From: Hyphomicrobiales bacterium | GTDB lineage: Bacteria > Pseudomonadota > Alphaproteobacteria > Rhizobiales > Rhizobiaceae | Length of the DNA stretch: 64,000 nt | Assembly (NCBI GenBank): GCA_024225445.1 | Contig: JAAEMP010000073.1 | Location: forward strand, 415-64,414 | Reading direction: 5' to 3' | Part shown: positions 12,349 through 24,768 of the stretch, one piece after another | Layout: each line of letters opens with the position of its first letter | How positions within the stretch are numbered: the first letter of the stretch is position 1 | The notes under the pieces: model-generated | The model's database searches: none | Told to the model about the DNA's origin: nothing | Seen by the model: the letters and a program-made list of their open reading frames with translations, nothing else | Made by a program: the position numbers and the translations under genes

Positions 12349-13767
12349 ATGAAATGGGATGAATTTTCCCGCTGGGGTACGCGGATATCAAACTGGGCCT
12401 CATCCTACCACAAGACATTGCGCGAGCGCCCGGTTCGCGCGCAGACAAAACCCGGCGACATCATCAATGCGCTACCCCTGTCACCGCCCGAGGATGGCGA
12501 GGAAATGGAGAAGATTTTCGCCGACTTCGAAGCTGATGTAATGCCGGGCATCACCCATTGGCAACATCCCAGATTCTTCGCCTATTTTCCGGCCAATGCG
12601 GCACCGCCCTCGATGCTGGCGGAATTTCTGGTGACCACGCTGGCGCAGCAATGCATGCTCTGGCAGACCTCACCGGCGGCAACGGAAATGGAAACCCGGA
12701 TGCTGGAATGGCTTCGACAGGCGATTGGCCTGCCGCAAGAATTTTCCGGCGTTATCCAGGATTCAGCGTCATCAGCGACACTTGTTGCCGTGCTGACGAT
12801 GCGCGAACGAGCGCTCGACTGGCAGGGCAACAAAAAGGGACTGGCGGCCAATCCGCGCTTGAGGGTTTATTGTTCCAGCGAAGTTCATACATCGATCGAC
12901 CGGGCGATTTGGGTATCAGGCATCGGCCAGGACAATCTGGTGCGCATCGCCACAAAGGGCGAATTGCGCGGCATGGACCCGGAAGAACTTGAAGCCGCAA
13001 TCAAGGCTGATCTGGCTGCCGGGTTGAAACCAGCCGGGATTATCGCCTGTACCGGTGGCACCGGATCGGGTTCTGCCGATGATCTGGCATCAATTATCGC
13101 CATTGGCAAAAAATATGATCTCTACATTCATGTTGACGCAGCCTGGGCAGGTGCAGCAATGATCTGCCCGGAATTCAGAACCTTGTGGAAGGGGGTTGAG
13201 GGAGCTGATTCCGTCGTTTTCAACCCGCATAAATGGATGGGGGCGCAATTTGACTGTTCAGCGCATTTTCTCAAAAACCCCGACAGCCTGGTCAAGACCC
13301 TGGCGATCCAGCCTGAATACCTAAAAACCCACGGCCATGACGGCCTGATCAATTATTCCGAATGGTCGGTGCCGCTGGGACGCCGCTTTCGCGCCCTGAA
13401 AATCTGGTTCCTGATCCGTTATTATGGCCTGGAAGCCCTGCGCAACCGGATCCGCAACCATGTTTCATGGTCAAAATCGCTGGCGCAACGTTTGGCCAAA
13501 CAACCCGACTTCACCATTACCACCGGGCCGGTGCTGTCGCTGTTCACCTTTCGCTACACGCCGTCGGGTAAACATAATCTGGATGAAATAAACCAGCAAC
13601 TGGTCAACCGCATCAATGATGAGGGCCTGCTTTATCTGACCCAGACACGGGTCGATGGCCAACTGGTAATCCGCTTTCAGGTTGGACAATTTGATGTGGA
13701 AGAAGAGGATGTTATAGCCGCATTTGATATTATTGCCAGCACTGCCAGAGAGGAAATCTTCCAATGA
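12349..13767 (+). CDS. group-II PLP-dependent decarboxylase, aromatic-L-amino-acid (DOPA/tyrosine) decarboxylase-like
   Basis: 472 aa with HWQHPRFFAYFP, the PLP-lysine motif FNPHKW followed by FDCS, and YLTQT near the C-terminus. These are the DDC/TyDC family hallmarks. Confidence 0.85.
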   Translation: MKWDEFSRWGTRISNWASSYHKTLRERPVRAQTKPGDIINALPLSPPEDGEEMEKIFADFEADVMPGITHWQHPRFFAYFPANAAPPSMLAEFLVTTLAQQCMLWQTSPAATEMETRMLEWLRQAIGLPQEFSGVIQDSASSATLVAVLTMRERALDWQGNKKGLAANPRLRVYCSSEVHTSIDRAIWVSGIGQDNLVRIATKGELRGMDPEELEAAIKADLAAGLKPAGIIACTGGTGSGSADDLASIIAIGKKYDLYIHVDAAWAGAAMICPEFRTLWKGVEGADSVVFNPHKWMGAQFDCSAHFLKNPDSLVKTLAIQPEYLKTHGHDGLINYSEWSVPLGRRFRALKIWFLIRYYGLEALRNRIRNHVSWSKSLAQRLAKQPDFTITTGPVLSLFTFRYTPSGKHNLDEINQQLVNRINDEGLLYLTQTRVDGQLVIRFQVGQFDVEEEDVIAAFDIIASTAREEIFQ

Positions 13768-14621
13768 ATCTGTCCACCTACCGGGTTGAAGGGAAGCAGT
13801 TTTTTGGTGCCGTTACGGATGAGGGCATGATTGCCCTTTCGCCAATATTTCCCCAATGGGTAACCTTGCGCGAGGTGATCGAAGCGGGCGCACTGGAACA
13901 ACTGGCAAAAGCCGCAAAAGGAAAACCCGTCACCCATGCCAATGGCACATTTGTTTATGAAATTCCCGTACCCAATCCGGAAAAAATCATCTGTGTGGGG
14001 GTCAATTTCCCCGATCGCAATGCCGAATACAAGGACGGCACGGCAGCGCCGCCGAATATGTCGTTATTCATCCGCTTTGCCCGTTCCTTTGTCGGCCACA
14101 ATGTACCACTGACCCGGCCGAAAGCCTCCGCCCAACTCGATTATGAAGGCGAGATCGCCATTATCATTGGCAGGGGCGGGCGCCATATCGCCGAGGAACA
14201 GGCGCTTGACCATATTGCCGCGCTGACCCTGTGCAATGAAGGCACGTTACGCGATTGGGTCCGCCACGCAAAATTCAACGTCACCCAGGGCAAGAATTTT
14301 GATGGTTCGGGCGCCATGGGCCCCTGGCTGGTGCCGTTCTGTGATCATGCCCAGATTATCGATGTTGGCCTGCGCACAAGGGTAAACGGTGAAACGCGCC
14401 AGGATGACCGCACCGGTCGTATGCTGTTTCCGGTTGCCCGCCAGATTGCCTATATCTCGACTTTTACCACTTTGGTCCCAGGCGACATCATCGTTACCGG
14501 CACTCCAACCGGGGCTGGCGCGCGCTTTGATCCACCAGTCTTCCTGAAACCCGGTGATATCGTCGAAGTTGAGGCGGACGGCATCGGCAAGCTGAAGAAT
14601 GGCGTCGAGGACGAGCAATGA
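13764..14621 (+). CDS. fumarylacetoacetate-hydrolase-family enzyme (HpaG-like isomerase/decarboxylase, single-domain)
   Basis: 285 aa with DYEGEIAIIIG and GDIIVTGTPTGAG motifs. Its start forms an ATGA overlap with the decarboxylase stop. Confidence 0.8.
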   Translation: MNLSTYRVEGKQFFGAVTDEGMIALSPIFPQWVTLREVIEAGALEQLAKAAKGKPVTHANGTFVYEIPVPNPEKIICVGVNFPDRNAEYKDGTAAPPNMSLFIRFARSFVGHNVPLTRPKASAQLDYEGEIAIIIGRGGRHIAEEQALDHIAALTLCNEGTLRDWVRHAKFNVTQGKNFDGSGAMGPWLVPFCDHAQIIDVGLRTRVNGETRQDDRTGRMLFPVARQIAYISTFTTLVPGDIIVTGTPTGAGARFDPPVFLKPGDIVEVEADGIGKLKNGVEDEQ

Positions 14622-15439
14622 GTCGCGATGGAGGAAACCTGACCCCGGTCGAAATCCAAGCCGCGGCCCGCGACCTGATGCGGGCTGAGGAAACCCGCAG
14701 CCAGATTGACCTGATCTCGATGCGTTTTCCTGAAATGAACATGGATGATGCCTATGCCATCCAGGCGGAACTGGTAAACGGCAAAATCGCCTCCGGGCAA
14801 AAAGTCATCGGCTGGAAAATCGGCCTGACCTCAAAAGCCATGCAATCTGCACTGAATATCGATGTTCCCGATAGCGGTGTCCTGCTGGATACCATGCGTT
14901 TCACCAATGGCGTCACTATTGCGACCGGTTATTTCATCCAACCGCGCATTGAAGCCGAAATTGCCTTTATCATGAAGCGCGATCTGGCCGGTGCCGATGT
15001 CACCCGCGACGATGTGATTGCCGCCACGCACTATGTTGCCCCGGCCATTGAAATCCTCGATACCCGCATTTTCAGAAGCGACCCGGCCACCGGACAACCG
15101 CGCGATGTCTGTGACACGATCAGCGACAATGCCGCCAATGCCGGCATTGTCCTGGGTGAAGAGCGTCACAGCATTAAAGATATCGACCTGCGCTGGGTCG
15201 GCGCTATTGTCAGCCGCAACGGCGAAGTAGAAGAAACCGGCCTGGGAGCAGGCGTGTTAAACGATCCGGTCGAAGGCATCGTCTGGCTGGCCCGGCGCAT
15301 GGCAAATTATGACCAGAGGATCAAAGCCGGGCAAGTGATACTATCGGGTTCGTTTGTGCGACCCATTGATTGTCCTGACGGGAGTAAGGTGGAGGCGGAT
15401 TTTGGGAAATTTGGCGCTGTGGGGATGCAGTTTGGGTGA
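14618..15439 (+). CDS. hpaH: 2-oxo-hept-4-ene-1,7-dioate hydratase
   Basis: 273 aa of the MhpD/HpcG hydratase family (KIGLTSKAMQ, EAEIAF, ILSGSF). Its start forms an ATGA overlap with the upstream gene. Confidence 0.8.
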   Translation: MSRDGGNLTPVEIQAAARDLMRAEETRSQIDLISMRFPEMNMDDAYAIQAELVNGKIASGQKVIGWKIGLTSKAMQSALNIDVPDSGVLLDTMRFTNGVTIATGYFIQPRIEAEIAFIMKRDLAGADVTRDDVIAATHYVAPAIEILDTRIFRSDPATGQPRDVCDTISDNAANAGIVLGEERHSIKDIDLRWVGAIVSRNGEVEETGLGAGVLNDPVEGIVWLARRMANYDQRIKAGQVILSGSFVRPIDCPDGSKVEADFGKFGAVGMQFG

Positions 15440-15563
15440 TGGTGGAGTGCAATATTTGATGAAGTGAGCATAGTTCCGGATAGCCAAACAGAAATTGCCG
15501 CTCAACGGGGGAACAGACTCTTTGCCAAAATAGCCTGGATTAGACAAAACCGATCTTCAACTT

Positions 15564-15710
15564 TAGGTCATAGACCTTTTCATGGTTACATTGAACTGTT
15601 TGATGGAATCTGATCAGCCCAGTTTGCAAAGCGCGGCGCGCAGCGCGACCTGGTTGATCGGGCGAGTGCCACAACGCGGCAGATGAACTGATCTGGCCCA
15701 CCTGAAAGGC
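15564..15710 (+). repeat. copy R1 of a roughly 110-150-nt intergenic repeat family (MITE- or structured-RNA-like)
   Basis: The head is taggtcatagaccttttcatggttacattgaactgtttgatgg. The core ends gcgcagcgcgacctggttgatcg. A degenerate inverted tail is cacctgaaaggcc. It aligns by eye with the copies at 59243-59356 and (reverse) 23584-23735. Confidence 0.6.
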
Positions 15711-15758
15711 CGTTTCCTGGTTGCCCGGAATGGAAGTTGCGGCACAAGCGAACAGGAT

Positions 15759-16565
15759 TTAAAATCTGAAATTCAGACCAATCTTGCCAATAAGTACATC
15801 GTTCTTGAACCGGTAGGCTATGGATTCGCCAGGGAATGCTACTGGATCCTGTGCATTAACGATTGTGTCTGCGAGATCGACATACATGCCTTCCAGTTTT
15901 ACACTCATATTGGAATCGATATTGTACTCTGCGCCGGCACCGACTGCGTAGCCGTACCGTGTTTCGTTCCTGCTCCAGCCTGGAGAAGAGTAGGCAAGGG
16001 CAGGAAGCTCCAGCGTGAAACGGTTCCTGACACGGCCAGCCGCAAAGCCCGCTGTGGCGTAAAACAGGAAGTCACCATAGGTGAGGCCAGCGCGCGCTCG
16101 GATTGTTGCCATATTTCCGAACCGGGTTTGATAAGTTGTATTGGTATCAATTCCGGTAAATGGCGGATTTGGATTGGGGTCCACTCGTGAAAAATCATGG
16201 TTGAGTCCCAATTCCTGAAAGGTGACATCAGCTTCCACACCTGCAATGAAATTCCCATCCTGAAAATCATATCCCAGAGACACGCCGCCATTCAGCGTTG
16301 ATTTCTCTTCGGAAATGGCATCGGGGAAAAGGCCATTTGATACATCCAATGGTATCAGGGTTCCACTAAATGCCCCGCGCAGCGCTTCTCCAGAGCTTGA
16401 ACTTATACCTCCAAAAATTCCAAGCCTTAAACCAGACCAGTTAGTTTGTCCGGCTTCAATCAAGGGTGATTCACGATCATTGGTATGTGTAACAATATCC
16501 GCGGCATATGCTGGCATCGCGCTTAGCAACCCTAGCATAAGAGAAATTCGAATCATTTTCGTCAC
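15759..16565 (-). CDS. outer-membrane beta-barrel protein (Omp25/Omp31-porin-like)
   Basis: 268 aa with the signal peptide MTKMIRISLMLGLLSAMPAYA, alternating beta-strand pattern and a C-terminal ...GLNFRF ending in Phe. Confidence 0.75.
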   Translation of the reverse strand: MTKMIRISLMLGLLSAMPAYAADIVTHTNDRESPLIEAGQTNWSGLRLGIFGGISSSSGEALRGAFSGTLIPLDVSNGLFPDAISEEKSTLNGGVSLGYDFQDGNFIAGVEADVTFQELGLNHDFSRVDPNPNPPFTGIDTNTTYQTRFGNMATIRARAGLTYGDFLFYATAGFAAGRVRNRFTLELPALAYSSPGWSRNETRYGYAVGAGAEYNIDSNMSVKLEGMYVDLADTIVNAQDPVAFPGESIAYRFKNDVLIGKIGLNFRF

Positions 16566-17005
16566 TCCGTACGCAGCAATTAGTCTGCCGTTAACCTTGG
16601 CTGCAAATTAATCTATTGAGTGAAATAAAAGCTGATTATGCCTAATAGTTCATTAACGCAGCGAAAAATTTTCCCGTTTTGCCAGTATTTTAGACAATCC
16701 GAGGGTGCGCATATCCCAAATTAGGCCATTATCCCGCAAAACTCGACGGTTCGTGGCCGTATGACAGAAACCCATTACTACAAGTGAGGACAGCGACAAA
16801 GCCTGACAAACCGCTCCAATTTGCTCAACAACAAATGCACAGCCCAATTCATCAATTGGGGGCAGCAAAGAACGCGTTTAACCAAAAATAAATGAAACCG
16901 CACTATGATCCCCAAGCAAATAATCCGCAGTTCGCACACCATAAATCATAACAAAATAAATATCGTCCAGCGTGCTGATATTGAAGAAAAAACGGAGGCT
17001 CCAAA

Positions 17006-18457
17006 ATGCTGGATACACTGGCCAAACAATATTTGAAGGTAGCTGATTTTTTCATTCCCGAAGAAATTTCGGCAGACAGGGAAGCCGTTAACCGGGCACG
17101 CATGTTCCTCATAAGCCACACCATTGGACCAATTCTGGGAAATTCTGTTCCGTTAGCACTGTACCTGTTGGATCCAACGCCCGGAATGGATATTTTTTGG
17201 CTTGCTGTGAGTATCACCGGATTCTGGATATGGCCTTTCCTGCTACGTGCAGGGTTTTCCTTTGACAAACTGGTAATTACTTCGGTGATTAATCTGAATC
17301 TCGCAATTTTCTGGAGTTGCTACTTCAATGGAGGAGTATCATCTCCTACCCTTCCATGGGTATTGATTATACCGATCCTGTCGTTCTTCTATATTGGAGG
17401 AGAACAACGATTGCAGACCACGCTTCTGTCCATCTTCGGAGCCTCGTTCCTGACCTTCACGGCTGCCTATTTCTATTTCGCGCCACCGATGAACGACATT
17501 CCCGAATACGCAATGATGAGCCTCGGCATCGTTTCAACTACCGCCACGCTTGCGTATGTTGCGACGATGGCGCTCTACTATTCGCGTATTTTTGATGCTG
17601 GCGTTGAACTCGAAAACGAGGTTCGCCGCCGCCGTGTTGCTGCACAAGAACTGAAGAACGCTGTTGTGGTCGCGGACCGGAACGGCCAGATGAAGGCGGA
17701 ATTCCTCGCAAGAATGAGCCACGAATTGCGGACACCGCTCAATGCGGTAATTGGTTACAGCCTGATACTGAAAGAAGATGCAGAAGAGGCTAACGATGGG
17801 CAGATGCGCAAGGATGTGGAAAAAATTCATGATGCCGGCCAATATTTGCTCAGACTGATAAATATGATCCTTGACTTGTCCAAGATCGAAGCTGGAAAGA
17901 TGCAGTTCAATGTGAACAAGAAATCGCTGGCCGATATTATTCATTCAGCAACCGAAGGCGTCCGTCATCAGATTGAAAACAACGGCGTTCAACTTGCTGT
18001 TACCATTGCACCGGAGGTTGAAGAAACAGAAACAGACAAAGAACGCCTGGTCCAGATTCTCGATGCAATTCTTCATAACGCCTGTGAACATACCAAGAAG
18101 GGTGTTATTAATGTCTGCTGCCAGTTGAATTCCTCTGGTCTGGAAGATGCTGTCTATTCAATCTCCATTAGCGACACTGGATCGGGGATGCCACCCGACA
18201 CACTAAACACGCTCTTCCAAACCCTGACCGATTCGCGTGATGCGTCAGCCAGTAAATATGGTGGCACCGGCTTGAATCTCACGGTTACAAACAAACTGGC
18301 AGTAGCCATGGGATGCAGGATCGACGTTGAAAGTACAGTTGGCAAAGGCAGCAACTTCACCGTTCATGTGCCGCGCGCCTGGGTTATCAAGGAATCAGAA
18401 GTGGATGCAGCGCAATCTGGGAACGTTCCAGACCGCGAAACCGCTATAGCCGCTTGA
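17006..18457 (+). CDS. membrane sensor histidine kinase (6 predicted TM helices + HisKA + HATPase_c), paralog 1
   Basis: 483 aa. About 195 aa of N-terminal polytopic domain carries FIPEE, ARMFLISHTIGP, GGVSSPTLPW and MALYYSR. The H-box is MSHELRTPLNAVIGYS, with N, G1 (DTGSGM) and G2 (GGTGLNL) boxes. There is no receiver domain. Confidence 0.85.
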   Translation: MLDTLAKQYLKVADFFIPEEISADREAVNRARMFLISHTIGPILGNSVPLALYLLDPTPGMDIFWLAVSITGFWIWPFLLRAGFSFDKLVITSVINLNLAIFWSCYFNGGVSSPTLPWVLIIPILSFFYIGGEQRLQTTLLSIFGASFLTFTAAYFYFAPPMNDIPEYAMMSLGIVSTTATLAYVATMALYYSRIFDAGVELENEVRRRRVAAQELKNAVVVADRNGQMKAEFLARMSHELRTPLNAVIGYSLILKEDAEEANDGQMRKDVEKIHDAGQYLLRLINMILDLSKIEAGKMQFNVNKKSLADIIHSATEGVRHQIENNGVQLAVTIAPEVEETETDKERLVQILDAILHNACEHTKKGVINVCCQLNSSGLEDAVYSISISDTGSGMPPDTLNTLFQTLTDSRDASASKYGGTGLNLTVTNKLAVAMGCRIDVESTVGKGSNFTVHVPRAWVIKESEVDAAQSGNVPDRETAIAA

Positions 18458-18667
18458 TTTATAGAATCTGATTTGAACGAAAACCGTAATGTTTTCCCGG
18501 CCTTTTTCATTTATCACCACATATACGCTGAATAACTAATCTTTAACCATTCTTGTGGTTTTTTCCCTCGCATTCTTGATATCACTTAGAATTTTACCAA
18601 AATTTTCCGATTACCGGCAATACTTCGAACAAATATTAAAACAAAAGTAAAACAAGGAGTCGCTCCG

Positions 18668-20008
18668 GTGAATTACATAAAGACTATTGGCGGTATTCCA
18701 ACCTCCGCCCTGGAAGGCAGCATGCGTGACTTCAGGGTTATGGATGATGTGGATTTAATCAATCGCTGTGATGCTTTCTACAACTGGCAGGATGTTCGTC
18801 GGCAGTCCGGCACATGGCCTTTTTCCAGGGCAACGGAATCCGGGCCTGCATCAAGCTGTGCCGTTCGTGACGATTGTGGCAATCTGAGCAATGGAGTTAA
18901 TTTTGCTTCACAGGATTATCTGAGCCTTTCCTCACATCCAGAAGTGGCAAATGCTGCCCACGATGCCATGGAGGTTTTCGGTGTTCACTCGGCAGGATCG
19001 CCGGCACTGGTTGGCAACACATCCATCTCTGTTGCACTCGAACAACGCCTTGCCGAATATTTGCAGATGAACGAAGCTATCCTGTACCCGACTGGTTGGG
19101 CTGCAGGCTTTGGTGTGATTAAGGGACTTATTCGATCTCACGATTACATCGTGATGGATTCGCTCTCGCATGCATGTTTGCAAACCGGCGCGCAGGCTGC
19201 CACCAGGAACGTTGTTCTCTTCCGGCATAATGATATTGAACATTGTCGTGCTCGCCTTGCTAAAATCCGCCAGCGTGATGCAAAGGCCGGGATCATGGTT
19301 GTGACGGAAAGTCTTTTCTCGATGGACAGCGACACACCGGATATCACAGCCCTCCAGGAAGCTGCAGATGAATATGGTGCGACATTGATGGTTGATGTGG
19401 CACATGATTTCGGTTGCCTGGGCGACGACGGCACGGGACATATCGGAATTCAGAACATGCTGGGTAAAGTTGACCTGGTAATGGGTAGTTTCTCAAAAAC
19501 ATTTGCCTCCAACGGTGGATTTGTCGCTACCAACAATCGGGCAGTTAAAGAATACCTGCGCTTCTATAGCCCGACTTGCACATTTTCCAATGCCTTGTCG
19601 CCAGTACAGGTAGCCGCAGTAACCAAAGCACTGGATATCGTCCAGTCTGAGGAAGGGGCGCATCTTCGCCAGCAGTTGATGAACAACATCCTTTCCCTGC
19701 GCAGCAAGCTCAGCGAAGGCGGTATGGACTATTATGGAGAACCATCCGCGATCGTCGCGGTTAAGACCGGCGATGAAGCACTGGCACGCATAACCGCACG
19801 TGCCTTGCCGGATTTCGGTTTGATAGCAAATCTCGTGGAGTTTCCTGCCGTTGGTAAGGGATTAGCACGTTTCCGGTTACAGGTTATGGCGGGTCATACC
19901 TCATCAGAGATTGACAAGGCGGTCGAAAGCATTGGCGGTGCTATGCAATTGGCAACCGCAAAACTCGAAGCAGGTATTGATCAAGATGAAATACTGAAGG
20001 CGGGATGA
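18668..20008 (+). CDS. alpha-oxoamine synthase family PLP enzyme (BioF/Kbl/Spt/CqsA superfamily), function unassigned
   Basis: 446 aa with a GTG start after AAGGAG. Motifs are FASQDYLSLSSHP, GWAAGFG, VDVAHDFG and the PLP-lysine motif GSFSKTFASNGGF. The stop overlaps the start of the downstream kinase (ATGA). Confidence 0.8.
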   Translation: MNYIKTIGGIPTSALEGSMRDFRVMDDVDLINRCDAFYNWQDVRRQSGTWPFSRATESGPASSCAVRDDCGNLSNGVNFASQDYLSLSSHPEVANAAHDAMEVFGVHSAGSPALVGNTSISVALEQRLAEYLQMNEAILYPTGWAAGFGVIKGLIRSHDYIVMDSLSHACLQTGAQAATRNVVLFRHNDIEHCRARLAKIRQRDAKAGIMVVTESLFSMDSDTPDITALQEAADEYGATLMVDVAHDFGCLGDDGTGHIGIQNMLGKVDLVMGSFSKTFASNGGFVATNNRAVKEYLRFYSPTCTFSNALSPVQVAAVTKALDIVQSEEGAHLRQQLMNNILSLRSKLSEGGMDYYGEPSAIVAVKTGDEALARITARALPDFGLIANLVEFPAVGKGLARFRLQVMAGHTSSEIDKAVESIGGAMQLATAKLEAGIDQDEILKAG

Positions 20009-21492
20009 TGGAAATAAATGCCGGCCCAATGTGGCCGGCGCACCGAATAGCGGGGACAAAAGACATGATGGATAATGCGATAATTAATTGGTTTATCCCG
20101 GAAAAAATCATCCGGGGCCGCACCAATATCGAAATGGCGCGGATTTTTGTGTTCACGCACTTGTTTGGTCCTGTTATTGCCCAGCCGATGGCAATTTTCC
20201 TGTATATTGTTTCTCCAGAGATCAACTTCCCACTGGAAGTCATGGCCACAGGTATCTACAGCTTCCTAACGCTTCCGTTCGTGTTGCGTTACACGGGTAA
20301 TATGGTTGTATCAGCGCTTCTTTCCTTTCAGGGCCTGGCTGCCATATCGCTATTCGGCACCTATTACTATGGTGGTTTCAGCTCTCCATTTCTGCCGTGG
20401 CTTATAGTCAGCCTCCTATTGGGATTTTTCTATCTTTCGAAAAAAGCATACCTGGTTATCGGACTCTTTGCTGCCGATATCATGATTTTTTTAGGTTTTC
20501 TTGGATGGAGCGGCCTGCCTAATACCGTTCCGCTGGAAGACCTGAGAATTCTAGCCTGGCTATCGATCGTCGCGGCGGTCGTCTACATGTCGTGGATGGC
20601 GCTGTACTATGCTCGCATGATCGCCCTGCGAACGGAACTCGAGATTGAAGCGGAACGTTTCCGTACAACCCAGAGAGAATTGGAAAAGGCACGCGCAGTT
20701 GCCGAACAAATAAACCATCATCGTTCCGTGTTTTTTTCCAAAATGAGCCACGAGCTGCGTACTCCGCTCAATGTGATCATCGGGTATTCTGAAATCCTTC
20801 TTGAGGATACCGCAGATATCGCGGGTGAGGACCAACAAAAAATCAAGGATCTCGGTCGCATCAACAAGGCTGGCAAGCACCTTCTCTCCCTTGTTTCCGA
20901 TGTCCTGGATACCAACACGATCGAAAACGATGCACACGTACTTGACATCGCTGAATTTACCCTTGGCGAGTTGATTGACGAAGTGATAGCTTCGGCGCTT
21001 CCACTGATTGAAAAGAACAACAATCGTCTGAATATCGAATGTCCGAATCGCAATGAAACCGTGCGAACCGATAAAACCAAGTTGCGACAGATGTTAATCA
21101 ACTTAATGAGCAATTCAGGAAAATTTACGAATCATGGCAAGGTAACGCTGCATCTGAGTATCGAAAAGGGTATTGCTGACGACCAGCTCCATGCATTCGT
21201 TTCTGATACAGGTATCGGAATTGCCGAGGATGCGTTGCCGAAGCTTTTCCAGGAGTATATCCAGGCGGATGCCTCAATTTCAAAACAGTATGGTGGCACC
21301 GGGATTGGTTTGGCAATTACACGTAAGCTCAGTGTCTTGCTCGGCGGCGAAGTTACTGCCACCAGCAAGTTGGGCGAGGGTGCCCGATTCACCATCGATA
21401 TTCCAGCAATACTAAAACCTGACAATAAAATAGAAACCGCTAAGGAAACTACTCTTGTGCAAACTGATAAAACGCAAGCCAAGGCAGCCTGA
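20005..21492 (+). CDS. membrane sensor histidine kinase, paralog 2 of 17006..18457
   Basis: 495 aa with the same N-terminal domain signature (FIPEK, ARIFVFTHLFGP, GGFSSPFLPW, MALYYAR). The H-box is MSHELRTPLNVIIGYS, with DTGIGI and GGTGIGL boxes. It is translationally coupled to the synthase gene. Confidence 0.85.
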   Translation: MMEINAGPMWPAHRIAGTKDMMDNAIINWFIPEKIIRGRTNIEMARIFVFTHLFGPVIAQPMAIFLYIVSPEINFPLEVMATGIYSFLTLPFVLRYTGNMVVSALLSFQGLAAISLFGTYYYGGFSSPFLPWLIVSLLLGFFYLSKKAYLVIGLFAADIMIFLGFLGWSGLPNTVPLEDLRILAWLSIVAAVVYMSWMALYYARMIALRTELEIEAERFRTTQRELEKARAVAEQINHHRSVFFSKMSHELRTPLNVIIGYSEILLEDTADIAGEDQQKIKDLGRINKAGKHLLSLVSDVLDTNTIENDAHVLDIAEFTLGELIDEVIASALPLIEKNNNRLNIECPNRNETVRTDKTKLRQMLINLMSNSGKFTNHGKVTLHLSIEKGIADDQLHAFVSDTGIGIAEDALPKLFQEYIQADASISKQYGGTGIGLAITRKLSVLLGGEVTATSKLGEGARFTIDIPAILKPDNKIETAKETTLVQTDKTQAKAA

Positions 21493-21589
21493 CTTGGCAG
21501 TACAAGTATAGAATTAAATGGGCTCGAATGATGGTCAAATCACCAGTGAATTCCAACTGCAAAAATACTCTCATGGGGAAGCTAAGAAA

Positions 21590-23470
21590 ATGAATCACAG
21601 CGCCGCACTTAAAACCGACGTTGCTTGGGTCGAACCGCAAGCAGAAACAGAAACCGCGCCGCACGTCCTTGTGGTGGATGACGTTGCAGATAATCGCGAT
21701 ATCCTGTCCCGAAGACTGGTTCGTCGCGGATTTGAAGTGACCGAGGCTGTGGGTGGTGAAGATGCACTTGCAAAGATTTCAGAAAGCTCATTTGATATTG
21801 TTCTGCTTGACATCATGATGCCCGATCTGAACGGAAACGAGGTTCTCAAACGTATACGAAAGCAATATTCAAATACAGAATTGCCGGTGATCATGGTCAC
21901 AGCGAAGAGTCAAAGTGAAAACGTTGTCGACAGCCTAGACAATGGCGCTGACGACTATATCACCAAACCAGTTGATTTCAATGTCGCGATGGCGCGCATC
22001 ACCAACCAGCTCAAAAAGAAATCAGCAGCTGAAGCCAACTCAAGGAAAACAAAAAATTTCGAGGAAACGGCTCAATTTCTCAATCAAACACTCGATCAGA
22101 GGAACGAGGAACTCAGTCTTGAATCTGAAAGACGCCAAATATCTGAAGAGAAATTGCATTACATGGCGTTCCACGATTCACTTACCGGTCTCCTTAACCG
22201 CCAAGGCTTTCGTGATATCCTGTCTCACGCATTTGACAATATGCCGACGACTAATGTCGAGCCTGCGCTCCTTTTTGTCGATCTTGATGCATTTAAATCA
22301 GTCAATGACGTATATGGTCACGAGATCGGAGACAAATTGTTGTCCCAGGTGGCTGATCGTTTGAGCGAATTGGTTGGCCCCGACATCAGCGTATGCAGAC
22401 TAGGGGGTGATGAATTTGCAATTGTCACACAATTCGAAAATCAGCCCGTAAAATCAATGCTAATAGCCGAGCAGATAGTCGAGCAAATGAATTTGCCATT
22501 CATTGTAGAAGGGAAATCCCTGACCATCGGTGCAAGCTGCGGCGTGGCACGGGCATCTCAATTTGACGAAGATCTTGATGGTCTAATTAAGGCAGCAGAT
22601 CTCGCCATGTACCATGCCAAAAGCAATGGCCGATGTGGTGCTGTTCTATTTGAGAATCGCATGTTCGAAGAGCAAGAAGAGCGTCGGGCACTCGAAATCG
22701 ATCTGCACCATGCAATCCAGAACTCTGAGTTTGAGGTTTTCTACCAACCACTTGTTAATGTTGAGTCAAATGAGATATCTGGATTTGAAGCCCTTGTGCG
22801 CTGGCCGCACAAAACACGTGGAATTATGTCACCGGACGCTTTTATTCCGCTGGTGGAAGAGATGGGCTTGATCAATGAGCTTGGAAACTGGGTTTTGAGG
22901 AGCGCCTGTGAGGAAGCAATCAAGTGGCCATCGAATATCAATGTCGCAGTTAACCTGTCGCCAAATCAGTTTAAGAACGATTCACTGCTAGCCACATTGG
23001 TAAATGTACTTGCCACAACAGGACTTAACCCTAATCGTCTCGAGTTGGAAATAACAGAATCGGCATTACTGGATACGGAAAAACGAACTATCAAAACTCT
23101 TGAATCCATTCAAGAACTGGGTGTCCGCATCTCGATGGATGATTTCGGCACCGGATATTCTACACTATCCTATCTGCAGGATTTCAAGTTCGACAAGATT
23201 AAGATTGATAAGTGTTTCGTCCAGGGTATGGAAGAAAATGTATCCGATGAAGCGATCATCGAGGCAATTGTAAAACTCAGCGATTCAATCGGCATGGGTA
23301 CTACGGCAGAAGGTATCGAAACGGACAGCCAGCTCAAATGTATCATGGACCGAGGATGCACTGAGGGGCAAGGTTACCTGTTTAGCCGTCCATTGACGAG
23401 CGACGATGCCGGCAAGTTTATTGAAAGTTTTGTGGGAATAAAAGACTTGAGCACTTCCGGTTTAGATTGA
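21590..23470 (+). CDS. response regulator with REC-GGDEF-EAL architecture (c-di-GMP turnover)
   Basis: The REC domain has VLVVDDVADNRD..LLDIMMPDLNG..KP. The GGDEF domain has an intact RLGGDEFAIV. The EAL domain has EALVRW, DDFGTGYS, KIDK, EGIET and GQGYLFSRP. I prefer the start at Met25 of ORF 21518..23470. Confidence 0.85.
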   Translation: MNHSAALKTDVAWVEPQAETETAPHVLVVDDVADNRDILSRRLVRRGFEVTEAVGGEDALAKISESSFDIVLLDIMMPDLNGNEVLKRIRKQYSNTELPVIMVTAKSQSENVVDSLDNGADDYITKPVDFNVAMARITNQLKKKSAAEANSRKTKNFEETAQFLNQTLDQRNEELSLESERRQISEEKLHYMAFHDSLTGLLNRQGFRDILSHAFDNMPTTNVEPALLFVDLDAFKSVNDVYGHEIGDKLLSQVADRLSELVGPDISVCRLGGDEFAIVTQFENQPVKSMLIAEQIVEQMNLPFIVEGKSLTIGASCGVARASQFDEDLDGLIKAADLAMYHAKSNGRCGAVLFENRMFEEQEERRALEIDLHHAIQNSEFEVFYQPLVNVESNEISGFEALVRWPHKTRGIMSPDAFIPLVEEMGLINELGNWVLRSACEEAIKWPSNINVAVNLSPNQFKNDSLLATLVNVLATTGLNPNRLELEITESALLDTEKRTIKTLESIQELGVRISMDDFGTGYSTLSYLQDFKFDKIKIDKCFVQGMEENVSDEAIIEAIVKLSDSIGMGTTAEGIETDSQLKCIMDRGCTEGQGYLFSRPLTSDDAGKFIESFVGIKDLSTSGLD

Positions 23471-23507
23471 ACCATTTGACCCACCGGAGGCTTGTTTTTC
23501 ACGCCCG

Positions 23508-23570
23508 CTGGACAGCGTTATGCTTCGCTTATGGTCGTATTGACCACAAGAAAATCATAACGCTGTCCAG
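23508..23570. repeat. perfect 15-bp inverted repeat (ctggacagcgttatg / cataacgctgtccag) with a 33-nt spacer, 38 nt downstream of the REC-GGDEF-EAL stop
   Basis: Read directly. The arms extend imperfectly outward (tcacgc.. / ..gcgtga). No T-run follows, so it is not a canonical intrinsic terminator. Confidence 0.6.
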
Positions 23571-23583
23571 AATGCGTGAATAA

Positions 23584-23735
23584 CCGGTCTTTGGTGAACC
23601 AATCCAGCCCATCTGCCCAGTTTATGTAATGGCGCAAAACTTGTCCGATCAACCAGATCGCCCAAAAACTTTTCCGGGTTTCGCGCCTTGCTGAGTGAAC
23701 TGGATTGGTCCATCAAATGCTTCCGTGTAAACAAG
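23584..23735 (-). repeat. copy R3 (inverted orientation) of the intergenic repeat family
   Basis: The reverse complement reads acacggaagcatttgatggaccaatccagttcactcagcaaggcgcg...gggcgatctggttgatcgg. By eye this is roughly three-quarters identical to the 59.3-kb copy over about 80 nt. Confidence 0.55.
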
Positions 23736-24027
23736 AAACGGTCTAGAGTACAGCCGCAAGCACAATCATATCAAACCCAAGTAATACAACAGCCCGGCGC
23801 AACCACTCTCCCGCACTGTTGCGTCAGTCTTTTGATAGATACTCCACAGTCCGGGCGTATGGATAATCCTCAGCACTTGGAAATTGGTGTATTACTACTC
23901 CGACGTTGACATTGTGTACCTATTGGCAATTCTTGAGAAACTGTAGGTTGTCGTATTGACCGTGGGGAGCAAAGCTGAAACAAAATAAATTGCCGGATTA
24001 TCGTAGTTTGAAATTTATGGAGATTTT

Positions 24028-24768
24028 TTGGATAAAGTTGTCTCAAAATTTTTGTCAGGTTTACGTGATCGCGGCAATATCGAAGAGATGTTTGATATTC
24101 TTCCGGATATTTATTTTTACATCAAGGATCACAATTGCCGCTGGATAATGTGTAACAAAGCCTGTCTCCGTTTGTTGAATTTTCGAAATCTTGGGGAGGT
24201 CTATGGCGCCACGGAAGGTGATTTTTTTCCACCAAAGATCGCGGAACTAATCCGGCTGGATGATTGTGACGTGATCAATAACCAGCGCCGCATCATCAAC
24301 CGGACTGAACTTATTGTCGATGAGGTGGGACATCTGACCTGGGTTTCTACTAACAAACTGCCGTTGATAGCAAAAGACGGCAGTGTTGCCGGATTGATGG
24401 GAACCACCAGAATCCTGACCCGCTCCGACCGACTGCCGGACGAATATCAACAGTTTCGTTCGGTTATTGATCATATTCAGACGAAAGTGGATGAAAAAAT
24501 CGATGTGAAGGAACTGGCGCGGATCAGTTGCCTGTCAAATAGCCAGTTCAGGAGGCGCTTTCGCATGCATTTCAGACTGTCACCACAAGAATTCATTCTG
24601 CGCACCCGGTTACAGGCGGCATCAAAGATACTCATCTCAACTGACCGGCCAATCATCAATGTTGCGCTCAGTTGCGGTTTTAGTGATCAAAGCTATTTCA
24701 CCAAACAGTTCAGCAAGTTTTTTGAGCAATCCCCCGGACGCTACCGGGCAATTTGGGGGCAAAAATAG
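24028..24768 (+). CDS. AraC-family transcriptional regulator with N-terminal PAS-like sensor domain
   Basis: 246 aa with a TTG start (alternative ATG at 24088). The C-terminal HTH_18 region is ELARISCLSNSQFRRRFRMHF..SPQEF..R...A..L; the N-terminus has a PAS-like fold pattern. The gene is very AT-rich. Confidence 0.7.
   Translation: MDKVVSKFLSGLRDRGNIEEMFDILPDIYFYIKDHNCRWIMCNKACLRLLNFRNLGEVYGATEGDFFPPKIAELIRLDDCDVINNQRRIINRTELIVDEVGHLTWVSTNKLPLIAKDGSVAGLMGTTRILTRSDRLPDEYQQFRSVIDHIQTKVDEKIDVKELARISCLSNSQFRRRFRMHFRLSPQEFILRTRLQAASKILISTDRPIINVALSCGFSDQSYFTKQFSKFFEQSPGRYRAIWGQK

Follow-up and report, generated by a model that had tools for sequence, protein, structure and literature searches.

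We have found that, in a 64,000-nt stretch of contig JAAEMP010000073.1 from a Hyphomicrobiales bacterium (hereafter the window), a gene for an alpha-oxoamine synthase (AOS) family enzyme lies between the genes for two paralogous membrane-bound histidine kinases (HK1 and HK2) and is followed by the gene for a REC-GGDEF-EAL response regulator, and that this linkage is strongly conserved in related genomes. We regard it as probable, if not assured, that the module (15759-23470) is a signalling circuit in which the AOS makes a lipophilic aminoketone-type signal that is sensed within the membrane and sets the turnover of cyclic di-GMP (c-di-GMP). The four core genes are co-oriented, in the order HK1, AOS, HK2, REC-GGDEF-EAL, and carry intact motifs throughout, as the initial annotation of this DNA had described and as the open reading frame (ORF) list, the translations, and Pfam and NCBIfam scans of the window's ORFs bear out. 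The features of the module are as follows.

15759..16565, minus strand: outer-membrane protein (OMP) gene, an 8-stranded beta-barrel of 268 amino acids (aa) with a signal peptide, divergent from HK1 (Pfam OMP_b-brl, 1.6e-14)
16566..17005, no strand: divergent intergenic region between OMP and HK1, 440 nt, AT-rich, presumably a promoter region (from sequence)
17006..18457, plus strand: HK1, a six-transmembrane (6-TM) sensor histidine kinase of 483 aa (Pfam HisKA 7.9e-19, HATPase_c 8.7e-21); H-box MSHELRTPLN at aa 237 (His239), G1 at 390, G2 at 419; no receiver
17006-17620, plus strand: sensor domain of HK1, aa 1-205 (from sequence)
18458..18667, no strand: spacer between HK1 and AOS, 210 nt, AT-rich, possibly with an internal promoter (from sequence)
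18668..20008, plus strand: AOS-family pyridoxal phosphate (PLP) enzyme of 446 aa, soluble (Pfam Aminotran_1_2, 7.4e-44)
20005..21492, plus strand: HK2, the paralogous 6-TM sensor histidine kinase, 495 aa (Pfam HisKA and HATPase_c); H-box at aa 247 (His249), G1 at 401, G2 at 430; no receiver
20005-20649, plus strand: sensor domain of HK2, aa 1-215 (from sequence)
20020..20039, no strand: GC hairpin GCCGGCC-ACATTG-GGCCGGC, a perfect 7 bp stem within the first 35 nt of HK2 (terminator-like scan, sequence)
21518..23470, plus strand: REC-GGDEF-EAL response regulator of 650 aa (Pfam Response_reg 3.6e-28, GGDEF 2.4e-40, EAL 2.3e-70)

Conserved linkage of synthase, sensors and regulator

A scan for relatives of the AOS, with one genome per species, returned 54 loci, and we took as linkage loci those in which the AOS is at least 59% identical and its neighbours are visible (L001-L009, L011-L019 and L056). 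The AOS adjoins, or lies within a few kb of, kinases with the same sensor domain in 16 of the 16 related loci long enough to show neighbours, and an HK2-type kinase is recognisable in all 16; L013 yields only an HK1-type kinase. The linkage occurs in Shinella, Rhizobiaceae and Hyphomicrobiales metagenome-assembled genomes (MAGs), in Hoeflea, Phreatobacter, Zhengella, Pseudahrensia, Fulvimarina, Aureimonas and Bosea, and also in two unclassified alphaproteobacterial MAGs, in MAGs labelled Bordetella and Desulfonatronospira, and on a Pseudorhodobacter chromid (from PLSDB). Carriers that can be cultured include Aureimonas sp. Leaf324, Fulvimarina manganoxydans, Pseudahrensia aquimaris and Zhengella mangrovi. 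The contigs assigned to the Desulfonatronospira and Bordetella MAGs (L013 and L018) encode proteins typical of the alphaproteobacterial set, which points to binning errors or horizontal transfer.

The usual gene order is OMP, HK1, AOS, HK2, REC-GGDEF-EAL. Where the order departs from this (L014, L015, L017 and L019) the pair formed by HK2 and the regulator is inverted and HK1 is divergent, with the genes still together. Orthologues of HK1 (36-73% identity) were found at 18 loci, and HK1 is absent in Pseudahrensia (L008) and Pseudorhodobacter (L056), so that the minimal conserved unit consists of the AOS, HK2 and the regulator. The initial annotation had named absence of the linkage from relatives as an outcome that would speak against its proposal; the linkage proves instead to be strongly conserved and to survive rearrangement. 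Since the arrangement recurs in many genomes it is not due to chance, and since the flanking genes differ between genomes the module is a unit. The outer-membrane beta-barrel gene belongs to this module, apparently as its usual companion: an orthologue (40-54% identity) stands beside HK1 or the AOS in 14 loci, a weaker relative (27-31%) is found in the Bosea-type loci L017 and L019, and L009 carries an additional OmpW-family gene between HK1 and the AOS. We also note that in Pseudorhodobacter turbinis (L056, 11866-13354) the regulator is reduced to its receiver part (162 aa) and a DDE-transposase gene lies about 260 nt downstream, which suggests that insertion of a mobile element decapitated the GGDEF-EAL output.

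A natural gene fusion bears on the connection to c-di-GMP. The protein P0318, recorded on five contigs, three of which, from different sequencing runs, we examined, consists of the sensor domain joined to GGDEF-EAL; its sensor part is 29% identical to that of HK2 and keeps the signature motifs, and its gene follows, at a distance of 71 nt, that of an AOS with 66% identity to the window's enzyme. Judged by its genes, the organism that encodes P0318 combines synthase, sensor and c-di-GMP enzyme as the window does, but in one-component form, and because this sensor-GGDEF-EAL fusion stands beside an AOS orthologue, the proposed wiring to c-di-GMP is independently supported. A gene of the AI-2E_transport family (PF01594) is divergently adjacent to the AOS in this one-component variant (L071, 3167-4297; also L072), and could encode an exporter of the product or be there by coincidence. 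A further metagenomic contig, L077, has the arrangement kinase/kinase-REC-AOS, with an AOS that is 64% identical.

It might be argued that the AOS is mere cargo, the kinases responding to a hydrophobic cue from outside, such as a lipid of a host or plant, and the AOS being co-transcribed with them, for example to modify or detoxify that cue or to make a secondary metabolite. The existence of orphan sensors with no AOS nearby, and the fact that HK1 has its own upstream region and is set off from the AOS by the 210-nt spacer, fit such an arrangement. We nevertheless consider it quite unlikely, as the regulator carries no DNA-binding domain and so would have no direct control over transcription of the AOS, and the adjacency of AOS and sensor persists both through rearrangements and where the sensor is fused directly to GGDEF-EAL. 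The AOS is, moreover, the most conserved protein of the module, with 71-80% identity among collinear Hyphomicrobiales-type loci compared with 50-76% for the kinases.

The synthase and its family

The AOS protein has no TM segment and carries the motifs QDYLSLSSHP (82-91), VDVAHDFG (242-249) and GSFSKTF (273-279, with Lys277), all three of which the initial annotation had picked out. It has the features of the alpha-oxoamine synthase subfamily (the PF00155 fold, the His, the Asp-x-x-His, the Schiff-base Lys and the C-terminal Arg), and its catalytic His168, Asp243/His246, PLP-Lys277 and Arg401/Arg403 region are intact. As all of these catalytic residues align with those of Kbl, serine palmitoyltransferase (SPT) and BioF structures in the PDB, the AOS is predicted to be an active condensing enzyme.

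To which branch of the family the enzyme belongs is a separate matter. It passes none of the NCBIfam equivalog cut-offs: the best model by score is BioF (277 bits; cut-off 426), followed by Kbl (253; cut-off 460), three SPT models (252, 240 and 184; cut-offs 640, 500 and 670), 5-aminolevulinate synthase (ALAS; 194; cut-off 339) and the CqsA/LqsA-type model NF005526 (PRK07179), against which it scores 185.3 bits with a cut-off of 428. Against sequences in the PDB it is about equidistant from Kbl (195 bits), SPT (193) and BioF (174), with ALAS at 143 and CqsA lowest at 113, and its identity to CqsA-family proteins is 22-26%. We built a neighbour-joining tree with Kimura distances from 46 sequences and 387 columns, with 300 bootstraps. 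As references it included V. cholerae CqsA (100% identical to PDB 2WK8), CqsA-family genes from V. campbellii, Ralstonia, Cupriavidus, Tistrella and Streptomyces (with adjacent CqsS/LqsS-like kinases collected where present), annotated hemA, bioF and kbl genes, and an SPT-like gene linked to an acyl carrier protein (ACP); LqsA was absent. The kinase-linked AOS clade received 100% bootstrap support, as did the wider clade that takes in distant homologues and the CqsA clade (6 sequences, including 2WK8); the window's AOS clade grouped with CqsA in only 4% of the 300 replicates, and the AOS was placed outside all reference groups of the tree. The failed cut-offs and the tree together indicate that the AOS is neither a housekeeping enzyme nor a member of the CqsA/LqsA family, and that it represents an uncharacterised clade. 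Genes of the true CqsA type, clearly different from the module's AOS, do occur in other Alpha- and Betaproteobacteria (Tistrella, Ralstonia, Cupriavidus). Two genuine CqsA-family genes, on Tistrella mobilis pTM3 (L061) and on a plasmid of Streptomyces sp. NBC_01426 (L062), lack an adjacent CqsS-like kinase.

These data bear on the idea that the AOS is simply a housekeeping BioF, Kbl or ALAS that lies between two kinases by chance. The initial annotation had listed a robust placement of the AOS within a housekeeping clade, as the only such copy in the genome, among the outcomes that would speak against its proposal, and the tree does not place it there. Its best NCBIfam model is, as stated, that of bioF, and JGI auto-annotations call its homologues 'glycine C-acetyltransferase' or '7-keto-8-aminopelargonate synthetase-like'. 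With every score below its curated cut-off, a separate clade at 100% bootstrap and a kinase linkage that is conserved across orders, we reject this idea, which is largely refuted and which we regard as highly improbable. Scans with Pfam and NCBIfam found no bio, tdh or haem genes within 10 kb of the AOS, and no biotin, haem, threonine or sphingolipid genes nearby, in keeping with what had been claimed at the outset, and a second AOS-family match is present elsewhere on the Pseudorhodobacter replicon.

A different possibility is that the AOS catalyses the first step towards a membrane aminolipid or a lipid of sphingoid type, with the kinases monitoring bilayer composition or stress, c-di-GMP adjusting envelope and biofilm, and the OMP belonging to the same programme. 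The AOS resembles SPT and Kbl equally (193 and 195 bits; 240-252 bits with NCBIfam SPT models), the sensors appear from the model described below to lie entirely within the membrane, OMP genes are conserved neighbours, and an acyl-CoA ligase gene comes next after a distant AOS homologue in Blastocatellia. We think this unlikely all the same: at no locus does the module include a ketoreductase, an N-acyltransferase or ceramide synthase, an ACP or an acyl-ACP synthetase, the AOS scores far under the 500-670 bits that the SPT models require, the kinase-linked AOS clade does not include the SPT-like, ACP-linked enzyme of the alphaproteobacterium Roseomonas, and one would not expect a pathway for bulk lipids to show translational coupling to a sensor across so many genomes.

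Distant homologues of the AOS (37-55% identity; Acidobacteriota, Gemmatimonadota, Actinomycetes and Rhodospirillales) do not have kinases of this type nearby. The contexts that we inspected, in Thermoanaerobaculia, Blastocatellia, Novosphingobium, Gemmatimonadaceae, Rhodospirillales, Streptomyces and Amycolatopsis, contain a Ser/Thr kinase, a BTAD regulator, a peroxidase, transporters and the one acyl-CoA ligase, and none is a known biosynthetic cluster; as they are so heterogeneous, the substrate of the AOS cannot be inferred from them. We note that the sole database record with an identical AOS protein is an 18-kb contig (L057, JAANSR011684549.1) of GCA_024449465.1, an assembly whose contig accession numbers exceed eleven million, so that the bacterium may be a passenger in a very large, possibly host-genome, assembly.

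The sensor domain, the regulator and the proposed circuit

The two kinases are paralogues, as had been proposed: FIPE, AR.F...H..GP, GG.SSP.LPW, MALYY.R and MSHELRTPLN are common to both, and their sensor domains, which are 30% identical, align by hhalign with a probability of 100% (E 9e-56). Both have the H, N, G1, F and G2 boxes of HisKA-type kinases, Pfam finds no receiver in either, and their cores are of the LuxQ/BarA/TorS type by NCBIfam, whose matches cover the cores only. Residues kept in at least 90% of 36 sensor orthologues are F.P (of FIPE), R.F...H..GP, GG..SP...W, L..FY and MA..Y. An AlphaFold2 model of HK2 1-235 (pLDDT 88.5, pTM 0.81) has an N-terminal amphipathic helix, six TM helices (39-69, 75-97, 100-121, 130-143, 145-169 and 177-234) and loops of at most 8 residues, with TM6 running into the signalling helix. 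The sensor thus consists of six TM helices with no periplasmic domain, followed directly by HisKA, an arrangement that resembles CqsS and LqsS in function and does not imply membership of their family. Since there is no periplasmic domain, the model suggests that a ligand, if there is one, must bind within the membrane. The helices, together with the loop between TM3 and TM4, hold the conserved polar and aromatic residues, and by topology the GG..SP...W motif would sit in this loop on the periplasmic side.

The description of the sensor as being of a different, uncharacterised type is upheld. Pfam searches of the sensor domains with E values up to 10 yielded nothing above noise (DUF2975 and PspB, at E of about 0.1), and neither BLASTP nor hhalign detected homology to CqsS/LqsS-like membrane domains, which we reject as relatives of the sensor. 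In particular, 18 HK1-type sensor domains compared with three CqsS/LqsS-like domains gave an hhalign probability of 0.6%, the pooled and HK2 profiles aligned with the CqsS/LqsS-like ones only at the HisKA junction, and the N-terminal 6-TM domain of CqsS (signature FPQPYEN...) had no counterpart, BLASTP finding nothing in the TM part. The only meaningful Foldseek match in the PDB is the 6-TM domain of the M. tuberculosis adenylyl cyclase Rv1625c (7yzk_A; TMq 0.56, rmsd 4.3 A over 183 columns, identity 15%, E 0.23). The domain is rare: an exhaustive HMMER search of 1.84 billion proteins with a profile of the two paralogues returned 474 representatives (E at most 1e-3), and a word-indexed search with HK2 1-225 returned mostly fragments, with HisKA/HATPase_c as the only Pfam signalling domains. 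It precedes plain HisKA kinases in the majority of cases, and otherwise hybrid kinases with REC and Hpt, PAS-kinases and, twice, GGDEF-EAL; such varied outputs are typical of an input domain, as we take it to be from its sequence contexts.

The regulator appears equipped both to receive a phosphoryl group and to make and degrade c-di-GMP. Its REC domain (aa 50-161) has a complete receiver pocket with the phospho-acceptor Asp in LLDIMMP at aa 96. The GGDEF domain (aa 217-372) has GGDEF at 296 and no RxxD I-site, and the EAL domain (aa 395-625) has EAL at 424 (EALVRW), N at 479, ELEITES at 509, DDFGTGYS at 541, KIDK at 562, EGIE at 598 and QGY at 618. By sequence, then, the Asp pocket, the GGDEF site and the EAL catalytic residues are all in place, and orthologues of the regulator keep GGDEF, DDFGTG and EGxE. 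As the protein has no DNA-binding domain, its immediate output is probably c-di-GMP turnover. Searches of the 64-kb window by tblastn with the window's own domains found no second receiver, AOS or GGDEF and no kinases other than HK1 and HK2, so the earlier claim that the only receiver in the neighbourhood is that of an intact REC-GGDEF-EAL protein stands.

In the circuit that we propose, the cytoplasmic PLP enzyme would condense an amino acid with an acyl-CoA or acyl-ACP, and its product would carry a lipophilic tail and be either an alpha-aminoketone or a compound derived from one, spontaneously or by an enzyme. This molecule would partition into the membrane, where it would bind within the bundle of six helices of HK2; HK1 may respond to a related ligand, or to the same one but with the opposite sign. 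Ligand occupancy would shift the kinase/phosphatase balance of the HisKA cores, which would act on the receiver of the REC-GGDEF-EAL protein, there being no other receiver present, and the balance of c-di-GMP synthesis and hydrolysis would thereby be switched, with consequences for sessile and motile behaviour. The beta-barrel OMP may help the hydrophobic molecule to cross the outer membrane, which is the weakest step of the scheme. If the product is secreted and its effect depends on cell density, the module would mediate quorum sensing.

Several points weigh against this circuit. The evidence for it comes from sequences and a structural model, and the pairing of kinases and regulator is read from the adjacency of their genes. 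Extra single-domain receiver genes lie by the kinases at some loci (L015, 7559-7960; L018, 6359-6763 and 6807-7208; L019, 15710-16078; L077, 3283-3648), and these receivers could be the true partner or a phosphate sink. The AOS tree is distance-based and contains few reference sequences, LqsA not being among them. The module has no conserved gene for an acyl-CoA ligase, ACP, reductase or exporter, which leaves the chemistry unconstrained. There is no AOS within the available 5-9 kb around P0287, P0255, P0347 and the second fusion, P0317; these four cases comprise that fusion (with insertion sequence genes about 1 kb upstream), a PAS-kinase, a hybrid kinase and a distant plain kinase, and they indicate that pairing of AOS and sensor is not obligatory and that orphan receptors exist. 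The Foldseek E value of 0.23 for Rv1625c is weak, helical bundles matching one another easily, and the kinases might sense the state of the membrane instead of a discrete ligand. Beyond the circuit itself, the module may represent a third, evolutionarily independent family of AOS-made lipid-like autoinducers with its own rare 6-TM receptor domain, carried by histidine kinases or directly by GGDEF-EAL enzymes, that occurs widely among Hyphomicrobiales from soil, from the sea and in association with plants, and that adjusts c-di-GMP to population density; this wider proposal is one that we put forward tentatively and do not, on balance, yet favour.

With respect to the genes themselves, the GTG start of the AOS has a Shine-Dalgarno sequence, AAGGAG, 7 nt upstream, and the overlap of its stop with the start of HK2 (ATGA at 20005-20008), on which the initial annotation had remarked, is real: orthologues align in frame from residue 5-7 onward, which supports the early HK2 start. 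The spacer between AOS and HK2 is 10-167 nt in collinear orthologous loci. The hairpin at 20020-20039 begins 15 nt into the HK2 frame, just past the AOS stop, and could modulate translational coupling or mRNA stability. The regulator had been placed 98 nt beyond HK2, which is correct for a second ATG at 21590; the longest ORF starts at 21518, 25 nt past the HK2 stop, and one orthologue aligns from residue 1 of this longest ORF, so the choice between the two starts is uncertain. An Rfam scan of 15400-24200 found no riboswitch or small RNA, its sole match being a chance miRNA model far below threshold, and scans for consensus promoters and terminators gave counts equal to the shuffled expectation and were uninformative. 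The G+C content is lower in the module (46-49% in 16001-24000) than in the upstream flank (53-55%), which, together with flanks that differ between genomes, fits a module that moves as a unit. The surrounding genes are unrelated ones for catabolism and transport, among them a PAS-AraC regulator downstream (24028-24768), sugar-related enzymes and apparent ABC-transporter genes. Upstream, an hpa-like catabolic set (12349-15439) comprises genes for a PLP-dependent aromatic-amino-acid-type decarboxylase followed by an FAA-hydrolase-family protein and HpaH (2-oxo-hept-4-ene-1,7-dioate hydratase), and is not kept beside the module in other genomes.

Comparison with known systems

Most of what is known of AOS-dependent signalling, through CAI-1 and LAI-1, comes from Vibrio, Legionella and a few Betaproteobacteria, and accounts of cell-cell signalling in Rhizobiales usually centre on acyl-homoserine lactones. 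A literature search returned no description of an AOS linked to this type of kinase or to GGDEF-EAL. If the proposed circuit is correct, many environmental and plant-associated Alphaproteobacteria would have a new class of signal and a new receptor domain, with a small molecule of the cell's own making leading straight to c-di-GMP. The module, at three to five genes, is small; it would be easy to test and lends itself to reconstruction in E. coli.

The membrane domain of Rv1625c (Cya; PDB 7YZK) is likewise a six-helix bundle followed by a long signalling helix; it differs in its output domain, and at 15% identity and E 0.23 the resemblance is one of fold only. This domain has been proposed to be a lipid receptor (PMC4821796, PMC9433096, the latter being the structure paper), and it has been exchanged for the receptor domain of CqsS with retention of ligand control (PMC4821796). 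Which ligands act on the membrane domains of class III adenylyl cyclases is an open question, and a sensor with a linked ligand synthase would be a tractable model for lipid binding by 6-TM bundles.

A self-made lipid signal is wired directly to c-di-GMP turnover in the diffusible signal factor (DSF) systems, RpfF-RpfC/RpfG of Xanthomonas and RpfF-RpfR of Burkholderia, either through a kinase acting on a REC-phosphodiesterase or through a one-component receptor-GGDEF-EAL protein encoded beside the synthase. The P0318 arrangement mirrors, by analogy, the latter route. Unlike the module, the DSF systems have a synthase of the crotonase family in place of an AOS, membrane (RpfC) or PAS receptors and an HD-GYP protein (RpfG), and there is no sequence relationship between them.

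The closest parallels are with Cqs and Lqs. As in Vibrio CqsA/CqsS, which makes and senses CAI-1, and in Janthinobacterium JqsA/JqsS/JqsR, the AOS gene adjoins that of a 6-TM kinase, and a lipophilic ligand would arise, as we infer for the module, by condensation of an amino-acid-type substrate with an acyl-CoA. CqsS, however, is a hybrid kinase that feeds LuxU/LuxO and transcription, whereas the module's kinases are non-hybrid with c-di-GMP enzymology as their predicted output, and both the AOS clade and the sensor family differ. The parallel with Legionella Lqs (LqsA, LqsS/LqsT, LqsR), to which the initial annotation had drawn attention, holds for the layout: one AOS-family synthase, two paralogous 6-TM histidine kinases with no receivers and one regulator, clustered, with intramembrane sensing expected in both. 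It does not extend to membership. The module's AOS lies in a different clade (185 vs 428 bits; 22-26% identity to the CqsA family; LqsA not in the tree), its sensor has no detectable CqsS/LqsS-like homology and is joined to a core of the LuxQ/BarA/TorS type, and in place of output through LqsR or LuxU/LuxO its receiver protein is a REC-GGDEF-EAL enzyme (LqsR being set apart here without a sequence comparison). Relative to Lqs and Cqs, the AOS clade, the rare sensor domain and the output all appear to be new, and the module resembles these systems by analogy, not by descent.

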